Shown: positions 6,673-20,979 of the stretch, in pieces
Position numbering within the stretch: position 1 is the first letter of the stretch
How the letters are laid out: every line of letters starts with the position of its first letter
Assembly: GCA_037441675.1 (NCBI GenBank)
Contig: JBBIRS010000002.1
Location: forward strand, 71,249-135,248
DNA length: 64,000 nt
From: Planctomycetales bacterium
Lineage (GTDB): Bacteria; 4484-113
Direction of reading: 5' to 3'
Position numbers and translations under genes: made by a program
The notes under the pieces: generated by a model
What the model saw: only the letters and a program-made list of their open reading frames with translations
Told to the model about the DNA's origin: nothing
The model's database searches: none

Positions 6673-7644
6673 GTGAAAAACAAAATGAGCGACAGGATAA
6701 AGGGAAATGTCAATAATCTTCTTTGGGGAACGGCACTCATACTCCTTGGTTTAACTGCCCTCGGAGTAAATCTTGGCTATATTGAAAGTGATGTTTGGGG
6801 GGATCTATTAGAACTGTGGCCTGTTCTATTGATTATCCTTGGATTTAATATAATCATAAAGCAAACAATCTTTGAAGGTTTAGCCTATTTAACGCCTGTA
6901 CTTCTCATTCTAACGTTTGCCTATGCGATATACTCCTCAATGGGGGATATGCCTTCTCCACCCTATCGCGGGATTATCAGAAGTGAAGACCGATGGCATA
7001 GAGGGGAGCAGGACCAGCAAATCTATAGCTACGAAACCGAGATAGGTGAAGCTCAAGAGTTAATCCTTGTTTTAGATGTAGCTGGGGTGCATCTTGAGGT
7101 AGATAGCGATGAAGAGAGTTCAAGTGTAAGAGTTGAAGTTAAGAGCGCCCGTTGGAAACCCGAAATTACTTTTGAAAAAGAGGACGGCGCACTAAGGGTG
7201 GTGGGAAATTCTTCCACTTTTCGCTTGAATTTTAAGCGAATTAAAGAAGAGTGGATGATAAAACTTCCCTCGCAAGTGAAAACGATTATAGAGATTAATG
7301 GAGCGGTTGATAGCTTAAAGGCTAACCTAAGGGAGATTAATCTTACTAAGCTAAATGTTGACGGAGCAGTTTCCACAATGGATTTTTGGTTGCCTAAGCC
7401 TAGTAAGACAAATTCTGAAGTAGTAATTGCAGCCGCTGTTACAGATCTCAATATCTATGTTCCAAGTGACGCGCCACTTCAGGTTGTAACACAAGCCACT
7501 ATAAGCACATTTGATATTAGTCAAGTTGAGCTTACAAAGAGTAACGGTGTATGGCGAACGATAAACTTTGATGAAAATACTCCACATATCAACATTTCTT
7601 TGGAATCAGCTCTTAGCACTGTAAATATTAGAAGTTCAGATTAG
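6673..7644 (+). CDS. DUF5668-type membrane domain fused to a LiaG/DUF4097-like domain
   Basis: N-terminal WGTALILLG...LWPVLLIILG TM module followed by beta repeats (IEINGAVDSL, LNVDGAVSTM, VVIAAAVTDLNIYVP). Confidence 0.7.
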   Translation: MKNKMSDRIKGNVNNLLWGTALILLGLTALGVNLGYIESDVWGDLLELWPVLLIILGFNIIIKQTIFEGLAYLTPVLLILTFAYAIYSSMGDMPSPPYRGIIRSEDRWHRGEQDQQIYSYETEIGEAQELILVLDVAGVHLEVDSDEESSSVRVEVKSARWKPEITFEKEDGALRVVGNSSTFRLNFKRIKEEWMIKLPSQVKTIIEINGAVDSLKANLREINLTKLNVDGAVSTMDFWLPKPSKTNSEVVIAAAVTDLNIYVPSDAPLQVVTQATISTFDISQVELTKSNGVWRTINFDENTPHINISLESALSTVNIRSSD

Positions 7645-7708: not shown

Positions 7709-7717
7709 TGTTATAAT
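7709..7717 (+). promoter_or_regulatory. Putative extended -10 promoter (TGtTATAAT) for the TPR-J/grpE/dnaK cluster
   Basis: Perfect TGn-TATAAT about 30 nt upstream of ATG 7746. Confidence 0.5.
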
Positions 7718-7745: not shown

Positions 7746-10700
7746 ATGAGCTTACTAAAGATATTTTCCGGCAAGACTAACGAGGAGCGACTGCTAAAGC
7801 GCGCGGAAATGATGCTTAACCGAGGTCGCCCAGGTGATGCCGAAAAGATTCTCTCCAGGTTGGCTAATAAATACGCAAATCCTCCCGCATCCGACGAGGA
7901 AAAGCTAGAACACGCCCATTACTATACCCTTTTAGGGAAGGCTTCTCTTCTCCAGAAGGAACAAGCGTCAATAAAGTACTGTTTAACAGCGAACTCCTAT
8001 AGAGCAAATGAGCCTCTCTTAAGAGAGTGTATCTCTTTAATTGAAAGTCAAGAACTTCTCACACCTGAAGCGACTGAACTTGTCCTTACTTTAAGCGAAC
8101 AGACAAGTGGGGAAAGAGGATTTTTACTCAACTACGCTAAAAGACTAGTTGCCAACAAGCGAACAAACCTTACGCCCTCCGAGCATGAGGTGGTGCTCTC
8201 CGCTACTAAGGCTTTTACACTTTGGAAAGGAGGTAGTGAGCTTCTAGCGGAGGAGTTTCTTAAGGCGGGCAGAAAGGATGCTGAAGCCATTTCTATCTAT
8301 AGGATTGCCTATCCACACAGAAAAGACGACGAAAAACTTGTTGAGATACTGCTTCAGCGTCTGGTAGAAACTGAAGAGAGAACGGATTTCTCCGCTCAAG
8401 TGTATCAGGATTATTTAGCGTCTGGCAAAGAGAATGATGACGCGCTTAGGCTACTTGTTGAGTATTACATAGATAAAAACGTGGTAACTCCGCAAAACAT
8501 AGCCCTAATTGAAAGCGCCATTCAGAAGAGAATCATTGATAAGGAACATATGGAGCTTCTCTCACTATACGTGCTAAGAACTAGGAAGGAATTCCTAGAC
8601 AAGAAAACGTTGCTTCTGAATATTTATAGAGCTGGTTATTACAACAAAAATGTTCTAGCCTTCTTGGCTATAGCCTTTGCGGAGGAGGGTAACTTTTCCG
8701 AAGAAGCACTACAAGCCTACGAAGACGCCCTGAAGAATAATTTGCTCACTAAGAGAATCACCCTGTTAATAGCGGAGCACTTCCTCAATGAGGGTAGAAA
8801 TGATGAATTTGCTTGTCGCGTTTACGAGCATTACCTCAGTTCATGGCCAGAAAGAAGGCAACCTCGTATCTATTTGCTTTTAGCTAAGAATTATATGCAG
8901 AAGAAGCGAACTGACGAACAGGCTCAAAGAATATACGAGGACGCCTTGGCGAATTTTCCTGAATTCACGGAGGTTCTTCCATATTTAGCCGCTAGCTATC
9001 TGACTTACGAGACGCGTCAACCTAAAGCCTTTACCATCTATGAAAGAGCATATCCCATTTTAGAAGATGAGTATATTAAACGGCAGATAGCGCTGATATT
9101 GGCGGAGCAAAGGATTGAAAACTCCAATTTTGATCGTAAAACCCTTGAATACATTGAGAATGCACTTCCCATAGCATCGGAAAGGAGAAGGGCTAACCTA
9201 ATAGATGCTAGAAATAAATGCTATCTTGCCCTTGAGAGAAAAGACCCACAAGCTTTGTCAATCTACCTGGAACTTTACATGAATAACCCTCAAGAAAGTG
9301 CGGAAAATCTCAGACTTGTGAGCATCCTATCCGACGCCCTCCTTGAAACTCCTGATGCGCTAGAGATTGATCCTGAGCTGAGAATGGAGATTCTTTACAG
9401 AAGATTTGAGCTGGAGAAGTTCAATTCACCCGCGAACGTTTCTCTCTACCTGCTCCAAGAAAGTCTACTCAACAGAGCCGATTATAAATACATCCTGCAT
9501 CTTGCGGTTAGATGCTTTGAAATTGACCCAGAGAAAACCGCCAACCTCCTGCACTCTGCAGGGAGAAGTGATCTCCTTAAAAAAGTTGGAACTTTCTTCC
9601 TAGAAAGATATAACTACTCACTCGCCTCCCAAGCCTTTTCCATTAGGAATCATTACGAACCATCGGAGGAGAATACATACCAGCTAGCAAAGATACTGCT
9701 GTACGAGGGTAAAACGAAGGAAGCACTTGAAATGCTAACCTCAATACGAGCTGAGGTCCTTGAACCAAGCGTGCTTTATTGGAAGGCTGCTGCTCTCCAG
9801 CAGGAAAACAAACCGAAGGAAGCTGCAAAATTATTAGCAAAGCTAAAGGAAAAGAGTGATTCTATACCGCAGTTCTTGCTTCTACTGCGTGAGGGAATTA
9901 ACGCTGAACTAGTAGGGGATTATCCAACTGCGATTGAAGCGTATCAGAAAGCTCTTTCGGATGAAAGAGCCAAGCCTATTCACAGGTGGCTAGAAATTGA
10001 AATTGGTCTAGCTTACTTTCGAAACGGCGAATTGGAAAAGGCGAAGGCTTTCCTTGAGCGAATATACAGGGCTAACCCAAATGGGCGAGCTGAACAACGA
10101 AACTACTCTTATGTTCTTTTTCACTACGCTTACCAATTGATGCTCAATAATGACTGGGAGAAGGCATTGTCTACCGTTCTTGAATGCGTTGAGCTTAATA
10201 GGAGTGACAGATTATTAAGATCAGTTGCGGTGGAGCTTCTCTTAAACTTCGCCAATCGCTTCTTTTTTAATGGAGAATACAATACTGTAACTAAAATCCT
10301 TGAAACTGCACATCAAATTCTTCCTCGGGATGTAAACGTAAAGATTTATCTTGCCTATTCTTATCATCTATTGCACAACTACGAGCGCGCTTTAATCTAT
10401 TATCGTGATATCACTTGGAGTGAAGAGGCACCCATGCTAGAGCGTTCCCAGGCGTACTGCTATCTGGCAAACAAGCTTTATTCAAAGGCTTGGAAAGTTT
10501 TTCTTGATTTGAAGAAAAAGGGGTTGATGGCTCCTGAGGATGTTCCACTCTTAATGTACTCGTTTCTTCAGGATGCAGAGGCAAATGGCAATAAGGCTTT
10601 TCAAGGAATTGATTTCCCCGAGGAGGAAAAAGCGCCGGTTCTCTTTAGCGCTTTTTATATCCACGATGGACTTTACGACCGAGCTCTTTCCCTATTGGGC

Positions 10701-11726
10701 AAAATCAAGCAGACCAAAGCTCAGGAGTTGCAAAGGCTTTGGTTTATGGGCAAGTCTGCATCATTAAAGGGTGACAAGAAGTTGGCAGTCGCCTATTGGC
10801 AGGAACTATTGGATAAATGTTTACAAAGACAAACCCATACAGAGACAAAGATAAACCAGCTTCTTGAAGTTGGGCTAGCATTTCTAGAAGCTGGGTATGC
10901 CCAAGAAGCGATGAAAACTTGGGAAAAGCTTAGAGAGATAAGCACAGACTACGCTCACTTGAACAAGTTGTACGCATACACGATTGACTTAAATGCCTAT
11001 TTGCTAGCCCAGCGAGGCAACATAAAAATTGCAATTAGTGAATGGGAGAAGGCTTTTAATTATGACTCAAGTAACACGAGTATCCTCCAAAATTTGGCTA
11101 TCGCCTACATGTTAGTAGACAACTTTGAAACTTCAGCCCTTTATTGGAACAAGGTTATTGCCAGATGGCGTGTGATGGTTGATAGAAATCCACATCTTTA
11201 CGCGCATCTGTCAGTTGCTATAGGTGAAGTGGAACGTCTACTTTCTGATGTATTTGTAGCCACTAAGCAGTTGGAAGAAGATGTATATACGGTGAAGACG
11301 GAAGAAATGGTGGATTATTATCAGCGTGCAAATCAGTTCTACTGGATTCTAGGACTTGATAAAAATGCAACCCGAGGACAAATAGAAAAGAGTTACTTTA
11401 GGCTTATAAAAATATTTGACCCAGAAAGACACCCGGCGGACTTTATGCTTCTTGAAGAGGCATACGCAAATCTAACGGATGAAAAGAAACGCGAGAGAAT
11501 AAATATTTTCGTCTTCAACACCATAGACATTCATAGATTGAAGGAAATAGTTTTTGGAACTGAACTAAGAACGCCAACATTTGAGGATTTAGGATTGACA
11601 ATCCATGTCCCTAAACCTGATTTTTCACAACTAAAACCTGACACCACAAAAACGGGTACAATCGTTGAGAAGTTAACGAACGAATTATCAATTTACTTCA
11701 GGCTCGGAGACCAAGCGATGGTGTAA
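7746..11726 (+). CDS. Large alpha-helical repeat/TPR protein with a C-terminal atypical J-domain
   Basis: Many TPR-like units. The C-terminal FYWILGLDKNATRGQIEKSYFRLIKIFDPERHPADFMLLEEAYANLTDEKKR follows the J-domain helix I-IV pattern. Directly upstream of grpE and dnaK. Confidence 0.85.
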   Translation: MSLLKIFSGKTNEERLLKRAEMMLNRGRPGDAEKILSRLANKYANPPASDEEKLEHAHYYTLLGKASLLQKEQASIKYCLTANSYRANEPLLRECISLIESQELLTPEATELVLTLSEQTSGERGFLLNYAKRLVANKRTNLTPSEHEVVLSATKAFTLWKGGSELLAEEFLKAGRKDAEAISIYRIAYPHRKDDEKLVEILLQRLVETEERTDFSAQVYQDYLASGKENDDALRLLVEYYIDKNVVTPQNIALIESAIQKRIIDKEHMELLSLYVLRTRKEFLDKKTLLLNIYRAGYYNKNVLAFLAIAFAEEGNFSEEALQAYEDALKNNLLTKRITLLIAEHFLNEGRNDEFACRVYEHYLSSWPERRQPRIYLLLAKNYMQKKRTDEQAQRIYEDALANFPEFTEVLPYLAASYLTYETRQPKAFTIYERAYPILEDEYIKRQIALILAEQRIENSNFDRKTLEYIENALPIASERRRANLIDARNKCYLALERKDPQALSIYLELYMNNPQESAENLRLVSILSDALLETPDALEIDPELRMEILYRRFELEKFNSPANVSLYLLQESLLNRADYKYILHLAVRCFEIDPEKTANLLHSAGRSDLLKKVGTFFLERYNYSLASQAFSIRNHYEPSEENTYQLAKILLYEGKTKEALEMLTSIRAEVLEPSVLYWKAAALQQENKPKEAAKLLAKLKEKSDSIPQFLLLLREGINAELVGDYPTAIEAYQKALSDERAKPIHRWLEIEIGLAYFRNGELEKAKAFLERIYRANPNGRAEQRNYSYVLFHYAYQLMLNNDWEKALSTVLECVELNRSDRLLRSVAVELLLNFANRFFFNGEYNTVTKILETAHQILPRDVNVKIYLAYSYHLLHNYERALIYYRDITWSEEAPMLERSQAYCYLANKLYSKAWKVFLDLKKKGLMAPEDVPLLMYSFLQDAEANGNKAFQGIDFPEEEKAPVLFSAFYIHDGLYDRALSLLGKIKQTKAQELQRLWFMGKSASLKGDKKLAVAYWQELLDKCLQRQTHTETKINQLLEVGLAFLEAGYAQEAMKTWEKLREISTDYAHLNKLYAYTIDLNAYLLAQRGNIKIAISEWEKAFNYDSSNTSILQNLAIAYMLVDNFETSALYWNKVIARWRVMVDRNPHLYAHLSVAIGEVERLLSDVFVATKQLEEDVYTVKTEEMVDYYQRANQFYWILGLDKNATRGQIEKSYFRLIKIFDPERHPADFMLLEEAYANLTDEKKRERINIFVFNTIDIHRLKEIVFGTELRTPTFEDLGLTIHVPKPDFSQLKPDTTKTGTIVEKLTNELSIYFRLGDQAMV

Positions 11727-11732
11727 TGCCTT

Positions 11733-12392
11733 ATGAAACAAAGGTTAAATCTTAAGGAGCTTTCAAAAAGCGTAGATTTTAGTGCGGAGCGATACTTTGT
11801 TCTAAGATACCGTTTATTTGAAAGCTCGCACTTTGCAAGGACAACTTTTGATTACGAGAGCTACAGCTTACTTTCTTATCAGACCGAACTCAACAGGCTT
11901 AGGATTGAGCTTTTTAGATTACAAAGAAGCATGGAGAATCTAAGGCTACCAGCTTTAGAGGTGGTAGGATTAACTAAAGTTTCTGAAGATATTAGTCGCT
12001 TAGCAGGGCAAGTTGAGCAACTCACGCAAAAAGTGCAGGCGGTAGTTTCAATAGAGCCTATAAAATCATCATTGAGAGGCCTTTTAGATGTCGTTGATTC
12101 CTGCGATAGGGCTATCAAGCTAGCCAGAGAAAAAAACAGCGCATCTGAAGGCGTAATTATCGGAATAGAAGCCATTAGAAGACAGCTTGTAACTCGCCTT
12201 GCGAGTTTAGGTATTACACCAATAGAGGTTAGGGTTGGTGATAAGTTTAATCCTGAAATTCACGAGGCACTTAGCACAGTTAGGGATAGAAATAAGCCCG
12301 ATGGAACCATAGAAGAAATTCTTCTTGCAGGTTATAATTTGCATCAAATACCATTAAGACCTGCGCAGGTGGTCGTCGTCAAAAATGACTAA
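11733..12392 (+). CDS. grpE: Nucleotide exchange factor GrpE (paralog with extended N-terminus)
   Basis: LLDVVDSCDRA, GDKFNPEIHEAL, GTIEEILLAGYNLHQIPLRPAQVVV are GrpE C-terminal signatures. Confidence 0.9.
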   Translation: MKQRLNLKELSKSVDFSAERYFVLRYRLFESSHFARTTFDYESYSLLSYQTELNRLRIELFRLQRSMENLRLPALEVVGLTKVSEDISRLAGQVEQLTQKVQAVVSIEPIKSSLRGLLDVVDSCDRAIKLAREKNSASEGVIIGIEAIRRQLVTRLASLGITPIEVRVGDKFNPEIHEALSTVRDRNKPDGTIEEILLAGYNLHQIPLRPAQVVVVKND

Positions 12393-12453
12393 TTGACTAA
12401 AAATAAGTTAAAATATTAAGTTATTCAAAATAATGAACTTATGGAGATAAATT

Positions 12454-14202
12454 ATGGCTCAGATAGTTGGAATAGATTTAGGGACAACTAATTCTCTAGT
12501 TGCCGCTATTGTTGACGGTAAACCTACATTAATCCCCAATGAAAGGGGCAAGTTTTTAACGCCTTCAGTGGTTGGCTTTACTGAGACGGGGGAACTTCTT
12601 GTAGGTGAACCCGCAAAAAATCAAGCAGTGGCTAATCCTGAGAGAACCGTTACAAGTATTAAGAGGTTGATGGGCACTGACAGGCGAATAGTCATAGGTG
12701 ACAAAGAGTACAGCCCTCAAGAAATTTCCGCAGTAATCCTTAAAAAACTGAAGTTGGATGCGGAGACGTTTCTTGGAACCGTCGTAGATGAAGCTGTCAT
12801 AACCGTTCCTGCTTATTTCACCGATGCCCAGAGACAGGCAACAAAGGATGCCGGGGAAATAGCCGGTTTCAAGGTTGAAAGAATAATTAATGAACCTACC
12901 GCAGCTGCCCTTGCATACGGTTTTGATAAGGCTGAAGAAGCAAAGACTATCCTTGTTTATGATTTGGGTGGTGGAACTTTTGACGTCTCTATCATAAAGT
13001 TGGTTGAAGGTGCATTCAAGGTCTTGGCAACTACCGGGAATAACAGTTTAGGTGGGGATGATTTTGATTACAGGATTGTCTCTTATTTAATTCAAAGGTT
13101 CAAAGAAAAGGAAAAGGTAGACCTAAGAAACATTTCAGATGTTTCGCAACAAAGAGCTATCATGCAAAGACTAAAGGAAGCCTCAGAGATTGCTAAGATA
13201 GATCTATCGTCGCTATTAGAGACAGAAATAAATCTTCCATTTATATACACGGAAGGAGACGAGCCTCTCCATCTGCACGAAACTCTGACAAGAGCAAAGT
13301 ATGAGGAGTTAGTAAAGGATCTTGTGGCACAAACGGAGGCACCGCTTAAGCTTGCACTATCTGATGCTAACCTTATGCCGGAACAGATTGACTCTGTCAT
13401 CCTCGTTGGCGGTATGACAAAAACACCTCTAGTGCAGAGATTGGTACGTGAGTTATTGAATAAGGATCCACTAAAGGATATAAATCCAGAAGAGTGCGTT
13501 GCACTTGGAGCTGCTATCCAAGCTGGCATCAAAAGAGGAGCATTAGAAGAATTAGTTGTAGTTGACGTAGCTCCATTTACGCTAGGAATTGAGACCGAGG
13601 GTGCAAAATTTAGCCCTATCATCCCAAGAAATACTGCTATTCCTTGTAGCAGGAAAAGCCTGTATCGCACTACGGTTGATTTTCAAACCGAGGCGCTTAT
13701 CCACGTGTTGCAAGGTGAAAGCCAGGCTGCTTCTGAGAATGAAAGCCTGGGAGAGTTTATACTCACCGGTATAACCCCTGCACCAAAGGGTGAGGCATTA
13801 GTTGAAGTTTCCTTTGATTACGACGTAAATGGTATAGTCAAGGTCACCGCCAAAGACAGGAAAACAGGCGCCAGTAAATCTATCACAATTAAGGCATCCA
13901 AGAAACGTCTCACCACGGAGGAGGTTGCCCTCGCCCAGCAGGACGTTAGTAGATTTAGCGGACAATTGTTGAAACAGAGAGAGAAAAGCAGATTACTTCT
14001 GGAAGGCGAAAACACTCGAAAAGAACTTGTTGGTCTTATCAAGAGTGTTGAGAAGGGAGAAAGAAAGATTGACGAAATTGAATTGTCACGATTCAAAGAA
14101 CTGATGGCTAAATTGGATGAAAGCCTTAAAGCAGAAGATATTGCAAAATTAGGGGATCTCATTGAGAAAGCAACCGCATTGATAGCTGATTATTCTTATT
14201 AG
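12454..14202 (+). CDS. dnaK: Hsp70/DnaK-family chaperone (probably a specialised paralog)
   Basis: GIDLGTTNS, TVPAYF, NEPTAAA, DLGGGTFD, LGGDDFD. Short (582 aa), with a divergent linker and lid. Confidence 0.95.
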   Translation: MAQIVGIDLGTTNSLVAAIVDGKPTLIPNERGKFLTPSVVGFTETGELLVGEPAKNQAVANPERTVTSIKRLMGTDRRIVIGDKEYSPQEISAVILKKLKLDAETFLGTVVDEAVITVPAYFTDAQRQATKDAGEIAGFKVERIINEPTAAALAYGFDKAEEAKTILVYDLGGGTFDVSIIKLVEGAFKVLATTGNNSLGGDDFDYRIVSYLIQRFKEKEKVDLRNISDVSQQRAIMQRLKEASEIAKIDLSSLLETEINLPFIYTEGDEPLHLHETLTRAKYEELVKDLVAQTEAPLKLALSDANLMPEQIDSVILVGGMTKTPLVQRLVRELLNKDPLKDINPEECVALGAAIQAGIKRGALEELVVVDVAPFTLGIETEGAKFSPIIPRNTAIPCSRKSLYRTTVDFQTEALIHVLQGESQAASENESLGEFILTGITPAPKGEALVEVSFDYDVNGIVKVTAKDRKTGASKSITIKASKKRLTTEEVALAQQDVSRFSGQLLKQREKSRLLLEGENTRKELVGLIKSVEKGERKIDEIELSRFKELMAKLDESLKAEDIAKLGDLIEKATALIADYSY

Positions 14203-14208
14203 GCCAAG

Positions 14209-14886
14209 ATGTTTACTCCTAAATCGTTGACTGCGTGCCCAATTTGCAAGAGCTACCCCTTACCTCAAGATGAAGCCAAAGCCTGTCCCAATTGCTCCGC
14301 TGATTTAACATCCTACCTTGAGTTTTACAAGCGCGCAAACCAGCTATATTTAGAAGCCCTTGATGCCCTATCACGTCACGATTTTTCCGCTGCTGACGAA
14401 CTTAAACAAAAGATGCTTATAACAAATCCCGATTTCAGGGAAGAAGCTATTATCTTAACCGCGCTATCAGAGCTCTATCAACACCGCGCAGAAAGCGCCT
14501 ACAACTATGCCTTAAGCATTCCAAGTACTCACCCTTCAAGGAAGCATCTCATAACAGAAATCGAGGAAAACTATCAAAGAGAACTTCTGGGAAAGCAACA
14601 CTATAATCTTGCCTTAAGCTCCGCAAGGGAGAAGTACTGGGCAGACGCAAAACACCATATTTCACAGTCTTTGGCTTTAATTCCGTACTTTCCTGAAGTA
14701 TGGAGGCTCGCGGTTAAAATTGCAATTTCTAGCGAGGATTATAAATTCGCTATTAGGGTTGTAGAGGATGCTCGAAAATATGTTTCTTACGATTCGTTCA
14801 TTGAAACTGTAAAAGTTGCCCTGATGAAAAAGCCTAAATTTAGATTACCAGGTCGGTTATCAAGGCAGTCGAAAAAACTTCATTAA
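14209..14886 (+). CDS. Zinc-ribbon plus TPR protein
   Basis: CPIC-x12-CPNC at the N-terminus, then TPR-like helices; 6 bp after the dnaK stop. Confidence 0.75.
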   Translation: MFTPKSLTACPICKSYPLPQDEAKACPNCSADLTSYLEFYKRANQLYLEALDALSRHDFSAADELKQKMLITNPDFREEAIILTALSELYQHRAESAYNYALSIPSTHPSRKHLITEIEENYQRELLGKQHYNLALSSAREKYWADAKHHISQSLALIPYFPEVWRLAVKIAISSEDYKFAIRVVEDARKYVSYDSFIETVKVALMKKPKFRLPGRLSRQSKKLH

Positions 14887-15096: not shown

Positions 15097-17940
15097 TTAA
15101 TCTATTGCGCGAAAGTCTTCAATGTAATATTCATTGAAAAGCACTGTTCCAGAATCAACCGTGCCATAAACCCAAATAGTGTCATTAGGATACCAAGTGC
15201 CACCGCCTTGCTCAAAGGAGGGGAAAGCGGCGGTCTCAATTGAACCCACCGAAGCCTCGGGAAGAGGAACGAACAAACTCCAAATATTCTGATCTGGGTT
15301 GAACACCTCTGATGAGGACACGAACTGCGGGGTCCCAGTACCACCACTGGGATATACGCTACCACCGAAAACGTATATCTTTCCATTGATGACCTCAGCG
15401 GATGCTCCAGCCCTAGGAAACTGCATATCAGGCACAGATTCCCAAGACGCCTGTGAAAGTTGACCTTCTATCTCAAATCGCATTCGTTCCACTGTATTTA
15501 TGCTTGTGCCGTCATTTGTTCTACCACCTATCACGTAGAGATAGCTGAAGCCAGTGGGTGGTTCGACAACTACCGCTGTAAAGTCGTATCTAGGAGTCGG
15601 CATAGGAGCATCACCAAGAAAATTAGTTGACCAGAACCTATACTGTGGGAAGTACATCCAGACGTTTGAGATTACATTTCCTAAAGGAGATGAGCTATCC
15701 AAGCCACCAGCGATAAAGAATACCTCAGCATCCGTTGGCGTTCCATTAACGAAAACTCTAACTATAGCGGAGGCGCTATCCGCGAATCTAATGTGAATAT
15801 CCCTGTCCCCAAATGTGCCAGCTGTAGTCCAAGGCTGAGTAGGATTGGAAATACTACCATCGTCTGCCATAAGACTTTCAACTGTAGAAAGGGTACCGGA
15901 AATGTTGTTGTAACCGCCCATTACGTAAATCCTATCAGTTTGGCTATGAAAACCAAACGCCATCTGACCAACAGGTTCAAGAAGGGGCAGACGGTTGGTC
16001 AGAAGAAAAGCGGAACCGAATGGAACTCTTCCCGCCTCTGTGTTTGCATCATAAGATTGGAATATCATTTGAACACTTCTATGAGCTGTGTTGCCATCCA
16101 TTCCGCCAATAATGTAAGCGCGCCTACCCTCTGTGGTAGTGCGACCAATAAAGCCAAAATCAGATCTAGGTAGCGGATTTACGCTATCGGTAGTAAAGTT
16201 CTTCGCTGTAGCGGATACTAAATTTACGGGCGCGGGTATTACCACAGAGGAAATTGGAATGCCCGCCTCGTCTAGTGCATTTACTCTCACTTGGATACCC
16301 TTATAACCGGGAAGAAAAGCGTCAGGGAATTGAACAGATGGTGGCTGTGGGTCTAGCCCTCCCCAATAAGTGATTGAAAAAACAGCTGTATCTGGTGAAC
16401 TAAATGTAATAGATGCGTCAACGGATGAGGGATCAAGGTTAAACTCCACATCTGGAGAGCCAGGTATAAACGCTGGATCCCAGTTTAATATACCGTCTCC
16501 GTCCGGATCAAAAGCCCATGCGCCGTTCCCAAATGGGTCAATCGCAAATTCATACCTCCCACTTGAGCCACTAGCTTTCACCTGTACTCTAACAGTAAAG
16601 CCCACAGGTATTCTATTGCCATCTGCGTCTTCAACGTAATCAAGAACCTGGTTCTCGCTCAAGACCTTATATTGCTGTTCCTCAGGTGTTGCGGGTATGT
16701 CAAAGTCATCGTCGCCATCCAAATCCACAGTTACTTCAGCGGTTACTGGGTTTAGTTGTCCCTGTCGTGCGGTGTTGGTCACTATGACTAGCCAGCTTCT
16801 TCTTTCTGTATGTCCCGCTGAATCACTAAACTGAAGTGTCATTTCAAACTGCTTAGTTGAAACTGAGCCTTGCAGAAGATACGGATTTACCATTACGTTA
16901 AGCGTATTATCAAAGTATGGAACAGTCGCCTGTGGTGTTCTTGAATCAATTGTTCCATCTCCAGTAAAATCCCAGAGGAAACTATATGGAGGAGTTCCAG
17001 GTTCGGTAAGCTTTACCGAAGCTGAAACAGAAAGCCTAGGTATTCTTTCTGTTGGGTCATCACTCAAAGAATTGTACACAATCCTAATAACATTCCCAAC
17101 CTCTGTGGGCGGGGATGTTGAAACAATTAGCTCTGGAATACCTGACGGTGTGGGTGCAATTTCTTTTACCACAACGTAGGGATAATTGGGATCCTGTGGG
17201 GAAATCGGCGGTGTCCAAATCACTTGCGAAAGTTGAGCATCTGTGACTATCAGTTTAGGAGAGAATACCATTTGTTGATTGTCTCCAGTAACTGTAAAGG
17301 TATATTGAGCATTCTGGAGTGTGGAATCAACTCTTCCGTCACCATCAAAATCCCAAGCAAAGGTGTATGGACCGCTATCGCTCCCGGATGCTTGAACCGA
17401 CGCCCTAAAGTATACTGGTTGTCCGGAAACGAATATGTAACGCATATCTTCCCCATCTCCCACAAACTCAACAAAATCACTGGTTATACTAACATTCACT
17501 GAGAATCTAGGAGCGGAAGTAACGGTAATAGTTAGCTCATTACTCTTGATTCGCTTATTCTTGTCGTCAACGGCCTCAACAACAGCATTGTATGTAGAGA
17601 CACCAGTGAGCGCATCTTCCGCCTTTAACTGATACTGATAATATACTGTTGCAGTCCGACTTGCTGAAGGTGGCGTGGTTGCATCAAACGCACCATCGTT
17701 ATTGAAGTCCCAATAGTAGGTTATGGGTAGAGTACCTCCACTAACCGTTACAGTGAATGTCGTGCCCAGAGGGGAGGGCCCGCTCAGAGGTGACGCCACA
17801 AACGAGACAATTGTAAGAGGAAGTACACCCTCCTCCTCGGGAGTGGGAGTTGTGCCGTTACCACCGCCACCACATGAAACAACGATTAGCAACCAAAGAG
17901 TTGACAAGCTTATCAGTGTTTTAGTTCGCCATAAAACCAT
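15097..17940 (-). CDS. Large surface lipoprotein with PKD domains and a C-terminal Kelch propeller
   Basis: Lipobox VVSC-GGGG; PKD WDFxxDG motifs; Kelch units YIIGG, IYVMGG, LYVIGGR, IYVFGG; AAGGAGG SD. Confidence 0.85.
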   Translation of the reverse strand: MVLWRTKTLISLSTLWLLIVVSCGGGGNGTTPTPEEEGVLPLTIVSFVASPLSGPSPLGTTFTVTVSGGTLPITYYWDFNNDGAFDATTPPSASRTATVYYQYQLKAEDALTGVSTYNAVVEAVDDKNKRIKSNELTITVTSAPRFSVNVSITSDFVEFVGDGEDMRYIFVSGQPVYFRASVQASGSDSGPYTFAWDFDGDGRVDSTLQNAQYTFTVTGDNQQMVFSPKLIVTDAQLSQVIWTPPISPQDPNYPYVVVKEIAPTPSGIPELIVSTSPPTEVGNVIRIVYNSLSDDPTERIPRLSVSASVKLTEPGTPPYSFLWDFTGDGTIDSRTPQATVPYFDNTLNVMVNPYLLQGSVSTKQFEMTLQFSDSAGHTERRSWLVIVTNTARQGQLNPVTAEVTVDLDGDDDFDIPATPEEQQYKVLSENQVLDYVEDADGNRIPVGFTVRVQVKASGSSGRYEFAIDPFGNGAWAFDPDGDGILNWDPAFIPGSPDVEFNLDPSSVDASITFSSPDTAVFSITYWGGLDPQPPSVQFPDAFLPGYKGIQVRVNALDEAGIPISSVVIPAPVNLVSATAKNFTTDSVNPLPRSDFGFIGRTTTEGRRAYIIGGMDGNTAHRSVQMIFQSYDANTEAGRVPFGSAFLLTNRLPLLEPVGQMAFGFHSQTDRIYVMGGYNNISGTLSTVESLMADDGSISNPTQPWTTAGTFGDRDIHIRFADSASAIVRVFVNGTPTDAEVFFIAGGLDSSSPLGNVISNVWMYFPQYRFWSTNFLGDAPMPTPRYDFTAVVVEPPTGFSYLYVIGGRTNDGTSINTVERMRFEIEGQLSQASWESVPDMQFPRAGASAEVINGKIYVFGGSVYPSGGTGTPQFVSSSEVFNPDQNIWSLFVPLPEASVGSIETAAFPSFEQGGGTWYPNDTIWVYGTVDSGTVLFNEYYIEDFRAID

Positions 17941-18018: not shown

Positions 18019-20979
18019 CTATGGACGTCTATAGCGCTCTATAATTGTGTTCATACCCTGTTCGCCAACACCAGATAACATAAAGTACTCGTAACGTGTA
18101 GTACTGCCAATATCACGCACCACTTGACCGAAGCCAAACCAAGCCCTGGGCAGTAGAGTATGTGGCGCATACGACACAGAACCATCATCCTGAATTTCTA
18201 TTATACTAGAAGTGTATCCATCAACAGTGCGTCCCGCGAACTGACGGTAAAGGAAACCGCGTCCTGGGTTTTCGAACTCCCAACCAGCGCCATGTCCGAT
18301 AGCAGCTTCAGGTAGATAACCGACCGTTGTCCAAGTACCCGTAGTGGGAGATTTAATGCTGTTAAAGGTAAATTTATCCACCTGGGCTATGTAATTACCG
18401 TTACGATCATATCCACCTATTACCACTATCTGCCAAGGTCTATTAGAACCCAAGTCTGGAGGGATAACAAAAGCCTTGTGATAAGCTCGCTCAATAGGCA
18501 TATCTACAACAGGCGAGTAATCTCCAGGTCTGGGTTCCTGTCCTTCTTGTCGCTGGGGTGGAGGCATACGGGTGTCAAACCATCTCATTGTTGGTACTAC
18601 ATGCTCGTTACCCTGTTCATCCTGCTCAATACCACCAAGAATGAATATGTAGTAGAAGGGGCTTTCTGGCCATACCGGCGCAAATACACCTACAGACTCA
18701 ATCGTTACAGCGGCACTACCATATAGCGGACGGGGCAGTGGGGCAAGCGGGACTGCACCTGTCCCACCACCGCCACCAGCCTCCCTAGGTGGACGGTCGG
18801 GAACAATGGGTGGATTAATAACATCACCTTCCTGAGGCCACAAATCCCAGTCATGAAACTGGAATCTGTTGCTCCAGATGTCAACCATATTGTTGGTGAC
18901 CTGAGCGTCAGGCTCACCATCACCATTTGAGTCTGTATCTACTGGAAGGGCTTCAGTACCAAAACCCGGTGGGTAATACTTTTGCACAATGTCCAATGGG
19001 TTTCCGCTTGTATCCCTACCACCAAAAACGTAAATCACAGGTATACCGAGCCTACCATCTGGTTCTGGAACTTCTCCACCGTAAGGTACTGCCGGGTTTG
19101 TATCAACGGGTTCGTGGACTAAAGCGGCAGCTGCTGAGCCTCTGGGAATGAAGTTGTCTCCTCTAATAATGTTGCGGTCATTAGATGGAACTCGTGAGTA
19201 GGGAGGCCCATAAAAATCAGGGTTGGACACTATAACATTCCCCATTCCGTCTCTAGGATAAGGAGGATAGCCCAAAACATTTAGCTGAGTCCAACCGCCA
19301 TCAGCATATCCATATCCTTGAGAAGGATCGCCAATATCTGAGCCGCTAATGTTCAATGCCCAAGCTGAATCGGTAAGGCCTAAAACTGACTGAAACTCGC
19401 CGTTTTGGGAGAGAATCTCTCCACCAAATAGGTAAACCACGCCACTTCTATGAGTCACCACTGCAGAATTAGCCCTTGGAGTGAAATCCGCATTCCAACC
19501 AAGTGACCATCTAGAATCTCCGACCTTTATTCCACGAAAAGCAAGGTAAGCATCAGCCGGTTCAGGTGGAACTGGAGTAATCCTAAGCAGATTACTCTCA
19601 GCCTCAACTCCATTGGCATCCTTTATAGTCAAACGAATAACATAAGGTGAACCAACACCACTTACATCATTAGCATCAACATTACCATCACCGTTGGCAT
19701 CATAATCAACCCTAACCTCTTGTCCCAAATAAGTTCCAAAGACAAATGTTGGAGTTGCATCATTAGATTGAGAGGGAACAATTACAGCGTCACTATCCAA
19801 ATAAGGCTGGGGAACTCTCGGCGGAGACACTATTGAAGGATTGTCAAGAGTAGGCGTAACGTCGGTAAATACCTGCCAGTTGTAGGTAATTGGCTCTCGT
19901 GCACCGGTTATGAATGCCTTAGGCTCTACTTTAAATGGTGCGGCACCGCTAGTTTGGTCAGCAGAAATAGTAACAGTAAGGACAGGTGCTGGAAAAACGT
20001 TAATAACAGCGGCGCCACTAACTTCTTCTACCATTTGGGCGTCACGGACATATACATGAGCTAGATACTGACCTGTGCTTTCGTAAATATGTTGCGCAAA
20101 TGAGTTAAGTGACCAGTCAGTAGTGACACCATCTCCAAAATCCCACCTGAACATATAGGGCGACTGCCCTCCTGAGGCTCCTGCGGTAAATTCAACCGGC
20201 AGTGGAGCTTGCCCTGCAACTGGGTTGGCGCGGATTGACGGCGAAAGTTGTCCACGGGGAACAACGTTGATTATCACCTGCCAATCGGGACGCCCGTCTC
20301 CATTGGTGTCATCAAGGGTTGAACGCTGAATTCCTCTGTTATCAACTACGGTTAAGCTTGGGTAGTAATAATATTCGGTTGAACCACCAACATCAGTTGG
20401 ACGTCCAGGAGAGGTATAAGTCCATACGACTTTCGGGGATGAAGAATCTGTTATCCCGTCACCATCCAAATCCCACCTGTAGATATAGGGAGGACTTCCA
20501 CCAGTTACTGCCGCTTCAAAAGTCACTTCAAGCGGAGCAGTGCCTGCGGATACGGACGCGGTAAACTGAACAGTTAAGGGTGGAGTTTGGCCAGGTGGCT
20601 CAGTAGCGGTTATCGTAATTGAGCGCTGAACAACTACAACTTTGTTGTTTGCGTCTGTAACAGTTAGTTTTACAATGGTTGAGCTATTGAAAGTTTTAAA
20701 GGGATTTGTTTCTGTTGAATCGCTGACTCCATCACCATTGAAGTCCCACTCAAACCTGTATGGCGCCTTCCCGCCAAAAGCGTAGGCGGAAAAAGCAACT
20801 GTAAGTGGAGCAGGACCTTGCTCTGGCTCGGCGGTTACAACGACAGAAAATGCAAGCCCAGTATCTCCTTGCCCGCCGCTGGGTGGCGGAGTTGTTCCAC
20901 CATTTCCTCCACCGCCACAGGCGGAGAACAAAAATAAAAGCGTCAATAATCCACTTAAAATTCTTAAATTTCTTTTCAT
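18019..20979 (-). CDS. Large surface lipoprotein with about four PKD domains and Kelch repeats
   Basis: Lipobox FSAC-GGGG; repeated GxAPLxVxF...GGxxPYxxxWDxxxDG PKD units; Kelch motifs VYLFGG, IYVFGGR, IFILGG, IVVIGG. Confidence 0.85.
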   Translation of the reverse strand: MKRNLRILSGLLTLLFLFSACGGGGNGGTTPPPSGGQGDTGLAFSVVVTAEPEQGPAPLTVAFSAYAFGGKAPYRFEWDFNGDGVSDSTETNPFKTFNSSTIVKLTVTDANNKVVVVQRSITITATEPPGQTPPLTVQFTASVSAGTAPLEVTFEAAVTGGSPPYIYRWDLDGDGITDSSSPKVVWTYTSPGRPTDVGGSTEYYYYPSLTVVDNRGIQRSTLDDTNGDGRPDWQVIINVVPRGQLSPSIRANPVAGQAPLPVEFTAGASGGQSPYMFRWDFGDGVTTDWSLNSFAQHIYESTGQYLAHVYVRDAQMVEEVSGAAVINVFPAPVLTVTISADQTSGAAPFKVEPKAFITGAREPITYNWQVFTDVTPTLDNPSIVSPPRVPQPYLDSDAVIVPSQSNDATPTFVFGTYLGQEVRVDYDANGDGNVDANDVSGVGSPYVIRLTIKDANGVEAESNLLRITPVPPEPADAYLAFRGIKVGDSRWSLGWNADFTPRANSAVVTHRSGVVYLFGGEILSQNGEFQSVLGLTDSAWALNISGSDIGDPSQGYGYADGGWTQLNVLGYPPYPRDGMGNVIVSNPDFYGPPYSRVPSNDRNIIRGDNFIPRGSAAAALVHEPVDTNPAVPYGGEVPEPDGRLGIPVIYVFGGRDTSGNPLDIVQKYYPPGFGTEALPVDTDSNGDGEPDAQVTNNMVDIWSNRFQFHDWDLWPQEGDVINPPIVPDRPPREAGGGGGTGAVPLAPLPRPLYGSAAVTIESVGVFAPVWPESPFYYIFILGGIEQDEQGNEHVVPTMRWFDTRMPPPQRQEGQEPRPGDYSPVVDMPIERAYHKAFVIPPDLGSNRPWQIVVIGGYDRNGNYIAQVDKFTFNSIKSPTTGTWTTVGYLPEAAIGHGAGWEFENPGRGFLYRQFAGRTVDGYTSSIIEIQDDGSVSYAPHTLLPRAWFGFGQVVRDIGSTTRYEYFMLSGVGEQGMNTIIERYRRP

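Follow-up and report, generated by a model that had tools for sequence, protein, structure and literature searches.

The four genes at positions 7,746 to 14,886 of a 64,000-nucleotide stretch of DNA from an uncultured Planctomycetales bacterium (assembly GCA_037441675.1, contig JBBIRS010000002.1; hereafter the window) quite probably encode a second Hsp70 machine. This machine would be insulated by the charges of its contact surfaces, work with its own partners only and serve a core cellular function. The genes encode a giant tetratricopeptide repeat (TPR) protein with a J-type domain (the scaffold), a GrpE (GrpE2), an Hsp70 (DnaK2) and a zinc-ribbon/TPR protein (ZnTPR). The initial annotation of the window had proposed a dedicated Hsp70/GrpE machine, and much of this has stood: the set is the second one in the genome, its Hsp70 forms a separate clade, and it is syntenic with the TPR genes. 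A reciprocal swap of charges between J domain and Hsp70 was not foreseen. The missing His-Pro-Asp (HPD) motif of the scaffold and the swapped docking charges are, as far as sequences can tell, the strongest evidence for a private pairing. Paralogy, synteny, the missing motif and the substitutions at published contacts are direct observations. Literature searches did not find the cassette described; Barriot et al. 2020, on J-domain proteins in bacteria and their viruses, may already classify the proteins.

The scaffold, DnaK2 and their proposed contact surface

The scaffold consists of a TPR solenoid of about 1150 aa, a C-terminal J-type domain and a conserved tail (Table 1). Pfam detects many TPR families and the DnaJ domain (E 1.4e-8; 35.2 bits vs a cut-off of 27.8), and full-length ortholog frames measure 1319-1351 aa. 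The site of the HPD motif is placed on D1225-P1226-E1227 both by BLASTP with the genome's own DnaJ and by HMMER with solved J domains. The first description as a J protein needs correcting, as HPD is absent and replaced by DPE. Among 57 ortholog rows (loci plus database proteins, with some genomes counted twice), the triplet is NPE in 45, DPE in 12 and HPD in none. The proline, the glutamate and the following arginine are invariant in a 12-row alignment of the phylum, and the Pro-Glu pair in a 13-row alignment across phyla. The AlphaFold2 (AF2) model of aa 900-1326 (predicted local distance difference test, pLDDT, 89.3) shows a helix-loop-helix hairpin with the triplet in its apical loop. Functional J-domain proteins of classes A-C carry HPD between helices II and III; here, the J fold is present and the triplet is DPE or NPE. 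The protein falls under the type IV or pseudo-J definition of PMC13254874, a recognisable J domain without HPD, which as worded there is silent on activity.

Such deviations are rare among described J domains. HPD is reported for 99% of them (PMC13580251). HPE is put at about 1%, in connection with a large survey that removed HPD-less sequences (PMC10410713). In the account of PMC13254874, H-to-Q or D-to-N replacement abolishes ATPase stimulation, and HPE is the sole tolerated variant, used by DjlB/DjlC with HscC. The same source terms it "enigmatic" whether HPD-less type IV proteins are accidental or selected. The present deviation argues for selection, since it is fixed phylum-wide, recurs elsewhere, is paired with one Hsp70 clade and is met by compensating changes in the Hsp70.

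The contacts of the canonical pair are described by Mayer 2021 (PMC8215388). Residues R22, K26, R27, K48 and K51 of the DnaJ J domain face E206, D211, E217 and D477 of DnaK. In the HPD motif itself, H33 is bonded to the backbone of L391 and D35 to R167 and Q378, with P34 in contact with P419 (PMC8215388). The five basic docking positions correspond in the scaffold to E1214, F1218, R1219, M1234 and E1237. Four of the five are thus non-basic, and all are invariant in the 12-row alignment. On the Hsp70 side, all 20 DnaK2 sequences carry K or R at 206 and K at 217, and R167, Q378, P419 and D477 are kept. The housekeeping DnaK of the same genome (DnaK1) retains E206 and E217, and its two ordinary DnaJ proteins (DnaJ1 and DnaJ2) retain HPD and basic residues at 22, 26, 27 and 48.

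DnaK2 has the nucleotide-binding domain, linker, beta substrate-binding domain and lid of a full-length Hsp70 (PF00012; E 1e-185, aa 82-574 plus a second stretch). The traits that first drew attention, namely the linker ELVVVD, the motif GGMTK and the absent tail, are all there. Recognisable nucleotide-binding motifs are kept. The protein is 48% identical to DnaK1 and 69-84% identical to its orthologs. On TIGR02350, it reaches 672.9 bits vs a cut-off of 822.55, below the level of housekeeping equivalogs. On TIGR01991 (HscA), it reaches 491 bits vs 708.55. It passes the looser NF001413 (688 bits vs 648), on which DnaK1 scores 965 bits.

Several functional elements of DnaK2 are altered. Between DnaK2 and DnaK1, 21 positions are invariant within each of the two groups and differ between them. 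In the binding cleft, M404E, A429T and V436A are invariant or nearly so. E31R lies in the 28-33 loop, which is taken here to be a GrpE-binding site of DnaK. The 290-295 "GrpE signature" loop is altered but present, and subdomain IIB has a 6-aa insert. The nucleotide-exchange elements are retuned, as judged by these residues. Asparagine stands at position 56 in 20/20 sequences, and R56N removes the R56-E264 cleft bridge, with the K55-E267 bridge kept. The docking and cleft residues listed for housekeeping DnaK in PMC8215388 (E206, E217, K55-E267, R56-E264) are therefore incomplete in DnaK2. A429 is described as highly conserved among DnaKs (PMC8215388).

GrpE2 matches PF01025 (E 8.5e-28, 97.5 bits vs a cut-off of 25.8) with aa 99-217, which cover profile positions 49-165 of 165, and stays below every NCBIfam GrpE equivalog cut-off. 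Its first ~98 aa lie outside the match, in line with the non-canonical N-terminus described at the outset. In most relatives, the GrpE2 start overlaps the scaffold stop, and stop-to-start overlaps are common among the module genes.

ZnTPR combines an invariant CPxC...CPxC ribbon (four cysteines, aa 10-29) with about 170 aa of TPR-like helices, according to the ortholog alignment. Its match to Pfam Zn_ribbon_3 is below the cut-off. The AF2 model is confident (pLDDT 91.8); Foldseek with this model gave generic TPR matches alone, none at E<=0.001, and the Atlas likewise gave generic TPR clusters. A predicted complex of DnaK2 and ZnTPR scored 0.03 vs a mark of 0.32, which says nothing either way. 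In four orthologs of the most distant family, f3 (L023, L024, L034, L035), ZnTPR ends in a hydrophobic stretch of ~20 residues, which is probably a membrane tail anchor; the protein of the window has a basic tail.

Table 1. Positions of the module, its parts and clusters next to scaffold relatives (window coordinates unless a locus is given)
Feature	Position	Strand	Remarks
Extended -10 promoter element TGTTATAAT	7709-7717	+	28 nt before scaffold start codon; predicted from sequence
TPR-J scaffold gene	7746-11726	+	open reading frame, 1326 aa
J-type domain (aa 1198-1251)	11337-11498	+	Pfam DnaJ; aligned to own DnaJ and solved J domains
D1225-P1226-E1227 in place of His-Pro-Asp	11418-11426	+	BLASTP and HMMER alignments
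GrpE2 gene	11733-12392	+	open reading frame, 219 aa
DnaK2 gene	12454-14202	+	open reading frame, 582 aa
ZnTPR gene	14209-14886	+	open reading frame, 225 aa
Post-scaffold clusters in other genomes	L091:4912-7686, L094:3569-7194, L095:7521-11158		small membrane protein, ~95-132-aa protein, PF13941 MutL/GlmL-like ATPase, ~380-aa protein

Distribution within and beyond the phylum

The module is found throughout the phylum of the window's genome. The scaffold profile matches all 24 genomes of the phylum, once each besides fragments split between contigs. Of the 23 other genomes of the class, 22 have a match to ZnTPR, as opposed to 0 of 17 outside the class. DnaK2 is found at E<=1e-170 in 21 of 23; the misses are G006, which is 62% complete, and G016, where a contig end cuts the gene. 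The order TPR-J, GrpE2, DnaK2, ZnTPR is unchanged in 20 loci, 16 of them complete. In L033 and L036, ZnTPR fell below the tblastn cut-off and was found adjacent separately, and L038 and L039 are cut by contig ends. Since this order is constant in all 20 loci, the objection that the TPR genes might not accompany dnaK and grpE in relatives falls away. Moreover, 185,579 species genomes were scanned for a pattern, which gave 21 loci, all from metagenome-assembled genomes titled Planctomycetales bacterium, Planctomycetia bacterium or "bacterium", several "UBP7".

Phylogeny agrees with this picture. The 104-row tree comprised 20 DnaK2 and 5 DnaK1 sequences, E. coli DnaK, HscA and HscC, and 76 of 150 HMMER representatives (540-700 aa; 74 were dropped for length). 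DnaK2 is monophyletic (Shimodaira-Hasegawa-like approximate likelihood ratio support 100, stem 0.36) and branches by family, with f4 first, followed by f3, f1 and f2. It stands outside the group (support 98) formed by canonical DnaK, HscA and the phylum's DnaK1, in a tree with an arbitrary HscC root. The two checks suggested with the initial annotation thus gave a DnaK2 clade apart from housekeeping DnaK and four-gene synteny across the phylum. Between the window's genome (G000) and G004, DnaK2 is 82% and DnaK1 75% identical; by this measure, DnaK2 is as conserved as the housekeeping DnaK. On the sequences at hand, the module is an operon for a second Hsp70 system that has been inherited vertically throughout the phylum. 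In a HMMER search of 1.84 billion representatives with DnaK2, the best 150 had 35-60% identity and none fell inside the DnaK2 clade. The 50% clustering of the representatives probably hides the subfamily.

Relatives also occur outside the phylum. A homologue search with the scaffold gave 18 proteins with generic names, and a cross-phylum alignment search was swamped by generic TPR proteins and did not recover the outside relatives. In all, 401 genomes, including 377 from outside the phylum, were searched with a profile built on the 427 C-terminal aa of the scaffold. Giant frames covering the TPR end and the J region were found in G055 (1306 aa, E 1e-67), G303 (8e-41), G148 (1e-39), and G223 and G374 (1032 aa and ~1e-14 for both). 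Their triplets are GPE (G055), SPE (G303), NPE (G148) and TPE (G223 and G374). The same five hold the highest DnaK2 identities among the 377 outside genomes (62% in G055, 67% in G303, 64% in G148, 59% in G223 and 58% in G374). With their Hsp70s added to the tree, the DnaK2 clade grows to 25 tips (support 100) and takes in no further row. The signature residues E31R, R56N, E206K/R, E217K/R, A429T/V and V436A are common to all 25 members. As the five genomes represent four families, with G223 and G374 sharing a genus, they count as at most four independent cases. A GrpE gene adjoins the DnaK2-clade gene in G055, G223 and G303 (Pfam) and in G374 (tblastn), and in G055 a Zn-ribbon/TPR gene follows. 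The scaffold lies elsewhere in the outside genomes; the single four-gene operon is therefore the arrangement of the window's phylum.

A split form exists in G178 and G288. It resembles the module in having, in series, a TPR gene of ~735 aa, a small J-like gene without the histidine (SPE in G178, PPE in G288), a GrpE-like stretch and an Hsp70. It differs in that scaffold and J-like domain are separate genes and the Hsp70s are 48% (G178) and 43% (G288) identical to DnaK2. These Hsp70s do not share the charge swap, since acidic residues are kept at 206 and 217.

Other genes were noted next to the outside relatives. A SpoU-family RNA methyltransferase stands just past the DnaK2 unit in G055 and G223 (L100:8976-9779 and L101:5366-5860) and in the window's phylum (L056:15536-17161), possibly as a remnant of an old gene order. 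Downstream of the scaffold relative, G055, G223 and G374 all carry genes for two small proteins, a PF13941 "MutL" protein and one of ~380 aa, along with DUF6754 genes (Table 1). PF13941 is taken here to be a glutamate-mutase-associated family of ASKHA fold. In G000, contig C6 (L105:4521-11130) holds orthologs of the PF13941 protein (62%) and the ~380-aa protein (52%) in a run with the look of a cell-division cluster, DUF881, a 123-aa protein and FtsA coming next. The MutL/GlmL-like cluster is a hint of function at most. DUF6754 has no specific link to the DnaK2 system: it occurs in 116 of the 401 genomes, far more widely than the system, and does not track it. Two paralogous four-gene sets led by DUF6754 lie in G000 (C1:380772-383851 and C4:50021-53227); the family is absent from 14 well-known control genomes and forms a widespread uncharacterised cluster.

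Regulation and alternative explanations

The four genes lie on the same strand with spacings of 6, 61 and 6 nt, exactly as first annotated, and the extended -10 element described then is indeed present (TGTTATAAT, Table 1). TGnTATAAT stands at the equivalent position in 6/6 same-family loci (L040-L045), plus L046. In the sister family, TGCTACACT lies after the upstream stop codon and before the module. A consensus promoter scan missed TGTTATAAT, since the element comes without the -35 box that the scan requires.

The housekeeping chaperones are encoded elsewhere in G000 (1.99 Mb, 18 contigs, 91% complete). The search for a canonical operon in the rest of the genome, proposed in the initial annotation, led to contig C9, with hrcA-dnaJ2 on C5. 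C9 carries, on the minus strand (L007:1547-8858), dnaK (615 aa), hsp20, grpE (255 aa), a type I dnaJ, a MerR-family regulator and clpB, and its DnaK and GrpE score better than those of the module. As C9 holds a full housekeeping operon, the module cannot be the only dnaK/grpE of the genome. The make-up of the C9 heat-shock operon is unusual; its MerR-family regulator is HspR-like, and FtsH and an HtrA-like protease are encoded nearby on the other strand. On C5, the single hrcA is followed by a second type I dnaJ (dnaJ2), divergent from groES-groEL. Each of G004, G011, G012 and G023 likewise has one DnaK1, one DnaK2 and one MreB.

Within the window, neither hrcA nor a further DnaJ was found; the genome's HrcA is on C5, and its DnaJ matches are on C9, on C5 and in the scaffold itself. 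A consensus controlling inverted repeat of chaperone expression (CIRCE) was absent from the window at <=4 mismatches and from the genome at <=2 mismatches. A perfect inverted repeat, TTAGCAAC-N11-GTTGCTAA, stands on C5 (L077:8884-8910) between hrcA-dnaJ2 and groES-groEL, just after a TTGACA-N17-TATAAT promoter. The genome holds no other perfect copy. The repeat probably represents the CIRCE operator of this lineage in a variant form. At <=2 mismatches, the variant was not found upstream of the module in any locus; a nearby match in G011 is downstream of ZnTPR. The first reading of the module as free of hrcA, dnaJ and CIRCE therefore holds for the window and its family. It does not hold in the sister family: in L051, a complete genome, hrcA and a type I dnaJ immediately precede the module in the same orientation. 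L049, L053, L055 and L057 likewise have the C-terminal peptide of this dnaJ in front of the scaffold, and groEL is a neighbour in L048. In L051, three consecutive cyclophilin-type peptidyl-prolyl isomerase genes (L051:2538-5639) come before hrcA-dnaJ and the module, forming a local protein-folding gene cluster.

Several points weigh against a private and active second machine. A J domain without the histidine may not stimulate at all, since H or D replacements abolish stimulation in the cases described in PMC13254874. The D211 contact is uninformative because a 4-residue deletion removes D211 from both DnaK1 and DnaK2. The hrcA-dnaJ pair abutting the module in the sister family could point to a functional link with the usual heat-shock system. 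Ranked by bit score, the five outside Hsp70s take places 1-4 and 6, as an ordinary-looking DnaK of G272 (56%, next to a dnaJ-like frame) stands between G223 and G374; the co-occurrence of scaffold and DnaK2 is therefore exact by identity and tree, not by raw score. Furthermore, G272, G112, G073, G240, G387 and G162 are outside the tree sampling. G162 may harbour a more diverged version of the system: its Hsp70 is 55% identical to DnaK2, and the scaffold profile matches a TPR frame of 1234 aa in this genome, though with its TPR part alone (C27:75681-76187, C36:26353-27876).

The best surviving alternative, which is unlikely, takes the J-type domain for a pseudo-J (type IV) domain, which would tether or regulate DnaK2 but not set off hydrolysis. 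The ATPase would then be stimulated by the client by itself or by the DnaJ2 linked to hrcA. The absence of the histidine in 57/57 rows and the sister-family hrcA-dnaJ speak for it, as do the abolishing replacements and the existence of non-stimulating J-like partners such as Pam16 (PMC13254874). However, the invariance of P, E and R in the phylum and of P-E across phyla argues for a working contact with the kept P419 and R167/Q378. The basic residues of DnaJ2 suit the acidic DnaK1, not the basic patch of DnaK2, and HPE is described as functional in DjlC/HscC (PMC8215388).

It is improbable that the module is a heat-shock back-up of the HrcA regulon, that is, a remodelled hrcA-grpE-dnaK-dnaJ operon without specialisation. 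The sister-family gene order, with hrcA, dnaJ or groEL next to the module, would fit this explanation. Nevertheless, the CIRCE variant occurs once in the genome, at hrcA/groES, and was not detected upstream of the module. In the sister family, too, the module keeps a promoter element of its own directly behind the dnaJ stop codon. In G000, hrcA-dnaJ2 is on a different contig, and the swapped interface argues against the use of DnaJ. In view of the interface data, the sister-family adjacency is read as gene-order history or loose co-regulation, not as shared function.

Some defence systems do include large TPR proteins and ATPases, and the initial annotation had considered an anti-phage sensor. 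An anti-phage or conflict system with the Hsp70 as sensor or effector is very improbable: all four proteins had zero matches in PADLOC-DB 2.0, the module is single-copy in 24/24 genomes, and its tree follows the families. No mobile-element genes are adjacent. Upstream lie the genes for RecA, RNase Y and a LiaF-like membrane protein; downstream come convergent Kelch/PKD genes and then that of elongation factor P. Least credible of all is a role of the module as the main DnaK operon of the cell, supplemented by two accessory factors. DnaK2 does pass NF001413, but a better DnaK, with tail and usual charges, lies in the complete C9 operon, both DnaKs occur in each of four other genomes, and DnaK2 falls below TIGR02350 and outside the canonical clade.

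Some neighbours recur. The LiaF-like membrane protein lies directly upstream of the operon (6673-7644, +); as L041 and L040, the latter with two copies, have LiaF-TM proteins in front of the operon too, the family has conserved this neighbour. The two large convergent Kelch/PKD (and SprB-repeat) proteins are encoded at 15097-17940 (-) and 18019-20979 (-). A Kelch protein of ~900-950 aa occupies the same position in L040, L041 and L051, not in L048 or L056.

Proposed mechanism, known systems and significance

For the second Hsp70 machine, binding, ATPase stimulation and a client are what we infer. The solenoid of ~1150 residues would bind a client or an assembly. The J-type domain would then dock on ATP-bound DnaK2 through the charge-reversed interface and might trigger ATP hydrolysis despite the missing histidine. 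The retained Pro-Glu may act in the manner of the HPE of E. coli DjlB/DjlC, which it resembles and which act on HscC. DnaK2 would clamp the client in its remodelled cleft, and GrpE2 would reset the cycle through nucleotide exchange. ZnTPR may be an accessory adaptor, apparently membrane-anchored in one family. A core task, not defence or stress alone, is most likely, because the module has its own predicted sigma-70-type promoter, no detectable HrcA operator, one copy per genome and a conservation at the level of DnaK.

Compared to the canonical DnaK-DnaJ-GrpE system, the module would share a three-part cycle. DnaK2 has all Hsp70 domains, R167/Q378/P419/D477, one cleft salt bridge and a GrpE partner. 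In contrast, the module lacks HPD and the C-terminal tail, has reversed docking charges, R56N and a changed linker and cleft, and its Hsp70 belongs to a separate clade.

E. coli HscC with DjlB/DjlC is similar in several respects: it is described as a specialised short Hsp70 with J proteins of its own only, whose motif ends in Glu (HPE; PMC8215388, PMC13254874). The ybeQ-hscC locus also has TPR-like Sel1-repeat genes, ybeQ and ybeT. On the other hand, DnaK2 is 34% identical to HscC vs 48% to DnaK1, HscC retains E206 and E217, and DjlB/DjlC keep the histidine. PMC8215388 presents HscC as having an insertion in L1,2 and neither the GrpE signature nor any use of GrpE; in DnaK2, the loop is retained, and a GrpE gene of its own is adjacent. 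Given the low identity, the loop and the adjacent GrpE, DnaK2 was rejected as an HscC. It was also rejected as an HscA, as it is not near E. coli HscA in the tree and no isc genes are adjacent. Homology to the DjlB/DjlC family beyond the J domain was rejected as well (hhalign aligned 42 J columns only, with probabilities of 4% and 0.2%). A look-alike of the scaffold in the Atlas, "DjlB/C second domain", was marginal (0.93, 167 shared features).

Human P58(IPK)/DNAJC3 and DNAJC7 also have a TPR array followed by a C-terminal J domain. P58(IPK)/DNAJC3 is the top Foldseek match of the scaffold's last 427 aa, with E 4.8e-4 but a TM of 0.23. The TPRs of DNAJC3/DNAJC7 are described as client-binding or Hsp70-binding modules (PMC13254874). 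P58(IPK)/DNAJC7 differ in having 9 TPRs, an intact HPD and general Hsp70s, compared with a solenoid of ~1150 aa, xPE and a private Hsp70. The resemblance to P58(IPK) is best taken as an analogy, homology not being established. Myxococcus xanthus has, by description, a second DnaK (MxDnaK2) with a GrpE homolog, MXAN_6672, directly upstream (PMC11019930). It differs in that, in the same account, no J-protein gene adjoins either MxDnaK (PMC11019930).

Reviews list three prokaryotic Hsp70 types, DnaK, HscA and HscC, and refer to other DnaK derivatives as unexplored "dark matter" (PMC8215388, PMC13580251). The system might, tentatively, be a further full-length kind beside these three, with its own GrpE, a J domain of the xPE type that fires the ATPase without histidine, and isolation by charge swap; this is possible rather than probable. 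The membrane-anchored ZnTPR of f3 and the MutL/GlmL-like cluster, which lies by division genes in G000, hint at the envelope or division apparatus. In this module, nature provides a compact case in which to test whether the histidine is dispensable and what encodes the specificity between J domains and Hsp70s, and possibly a ready-made orthogonal chaperone pair for engineering. If the proposal is true, the histidine of HPD would not be universally needed, and a bacterial cell could run two Hsp70 circuits that do not interfere, the second devoted to building or remodelling one large assembly.

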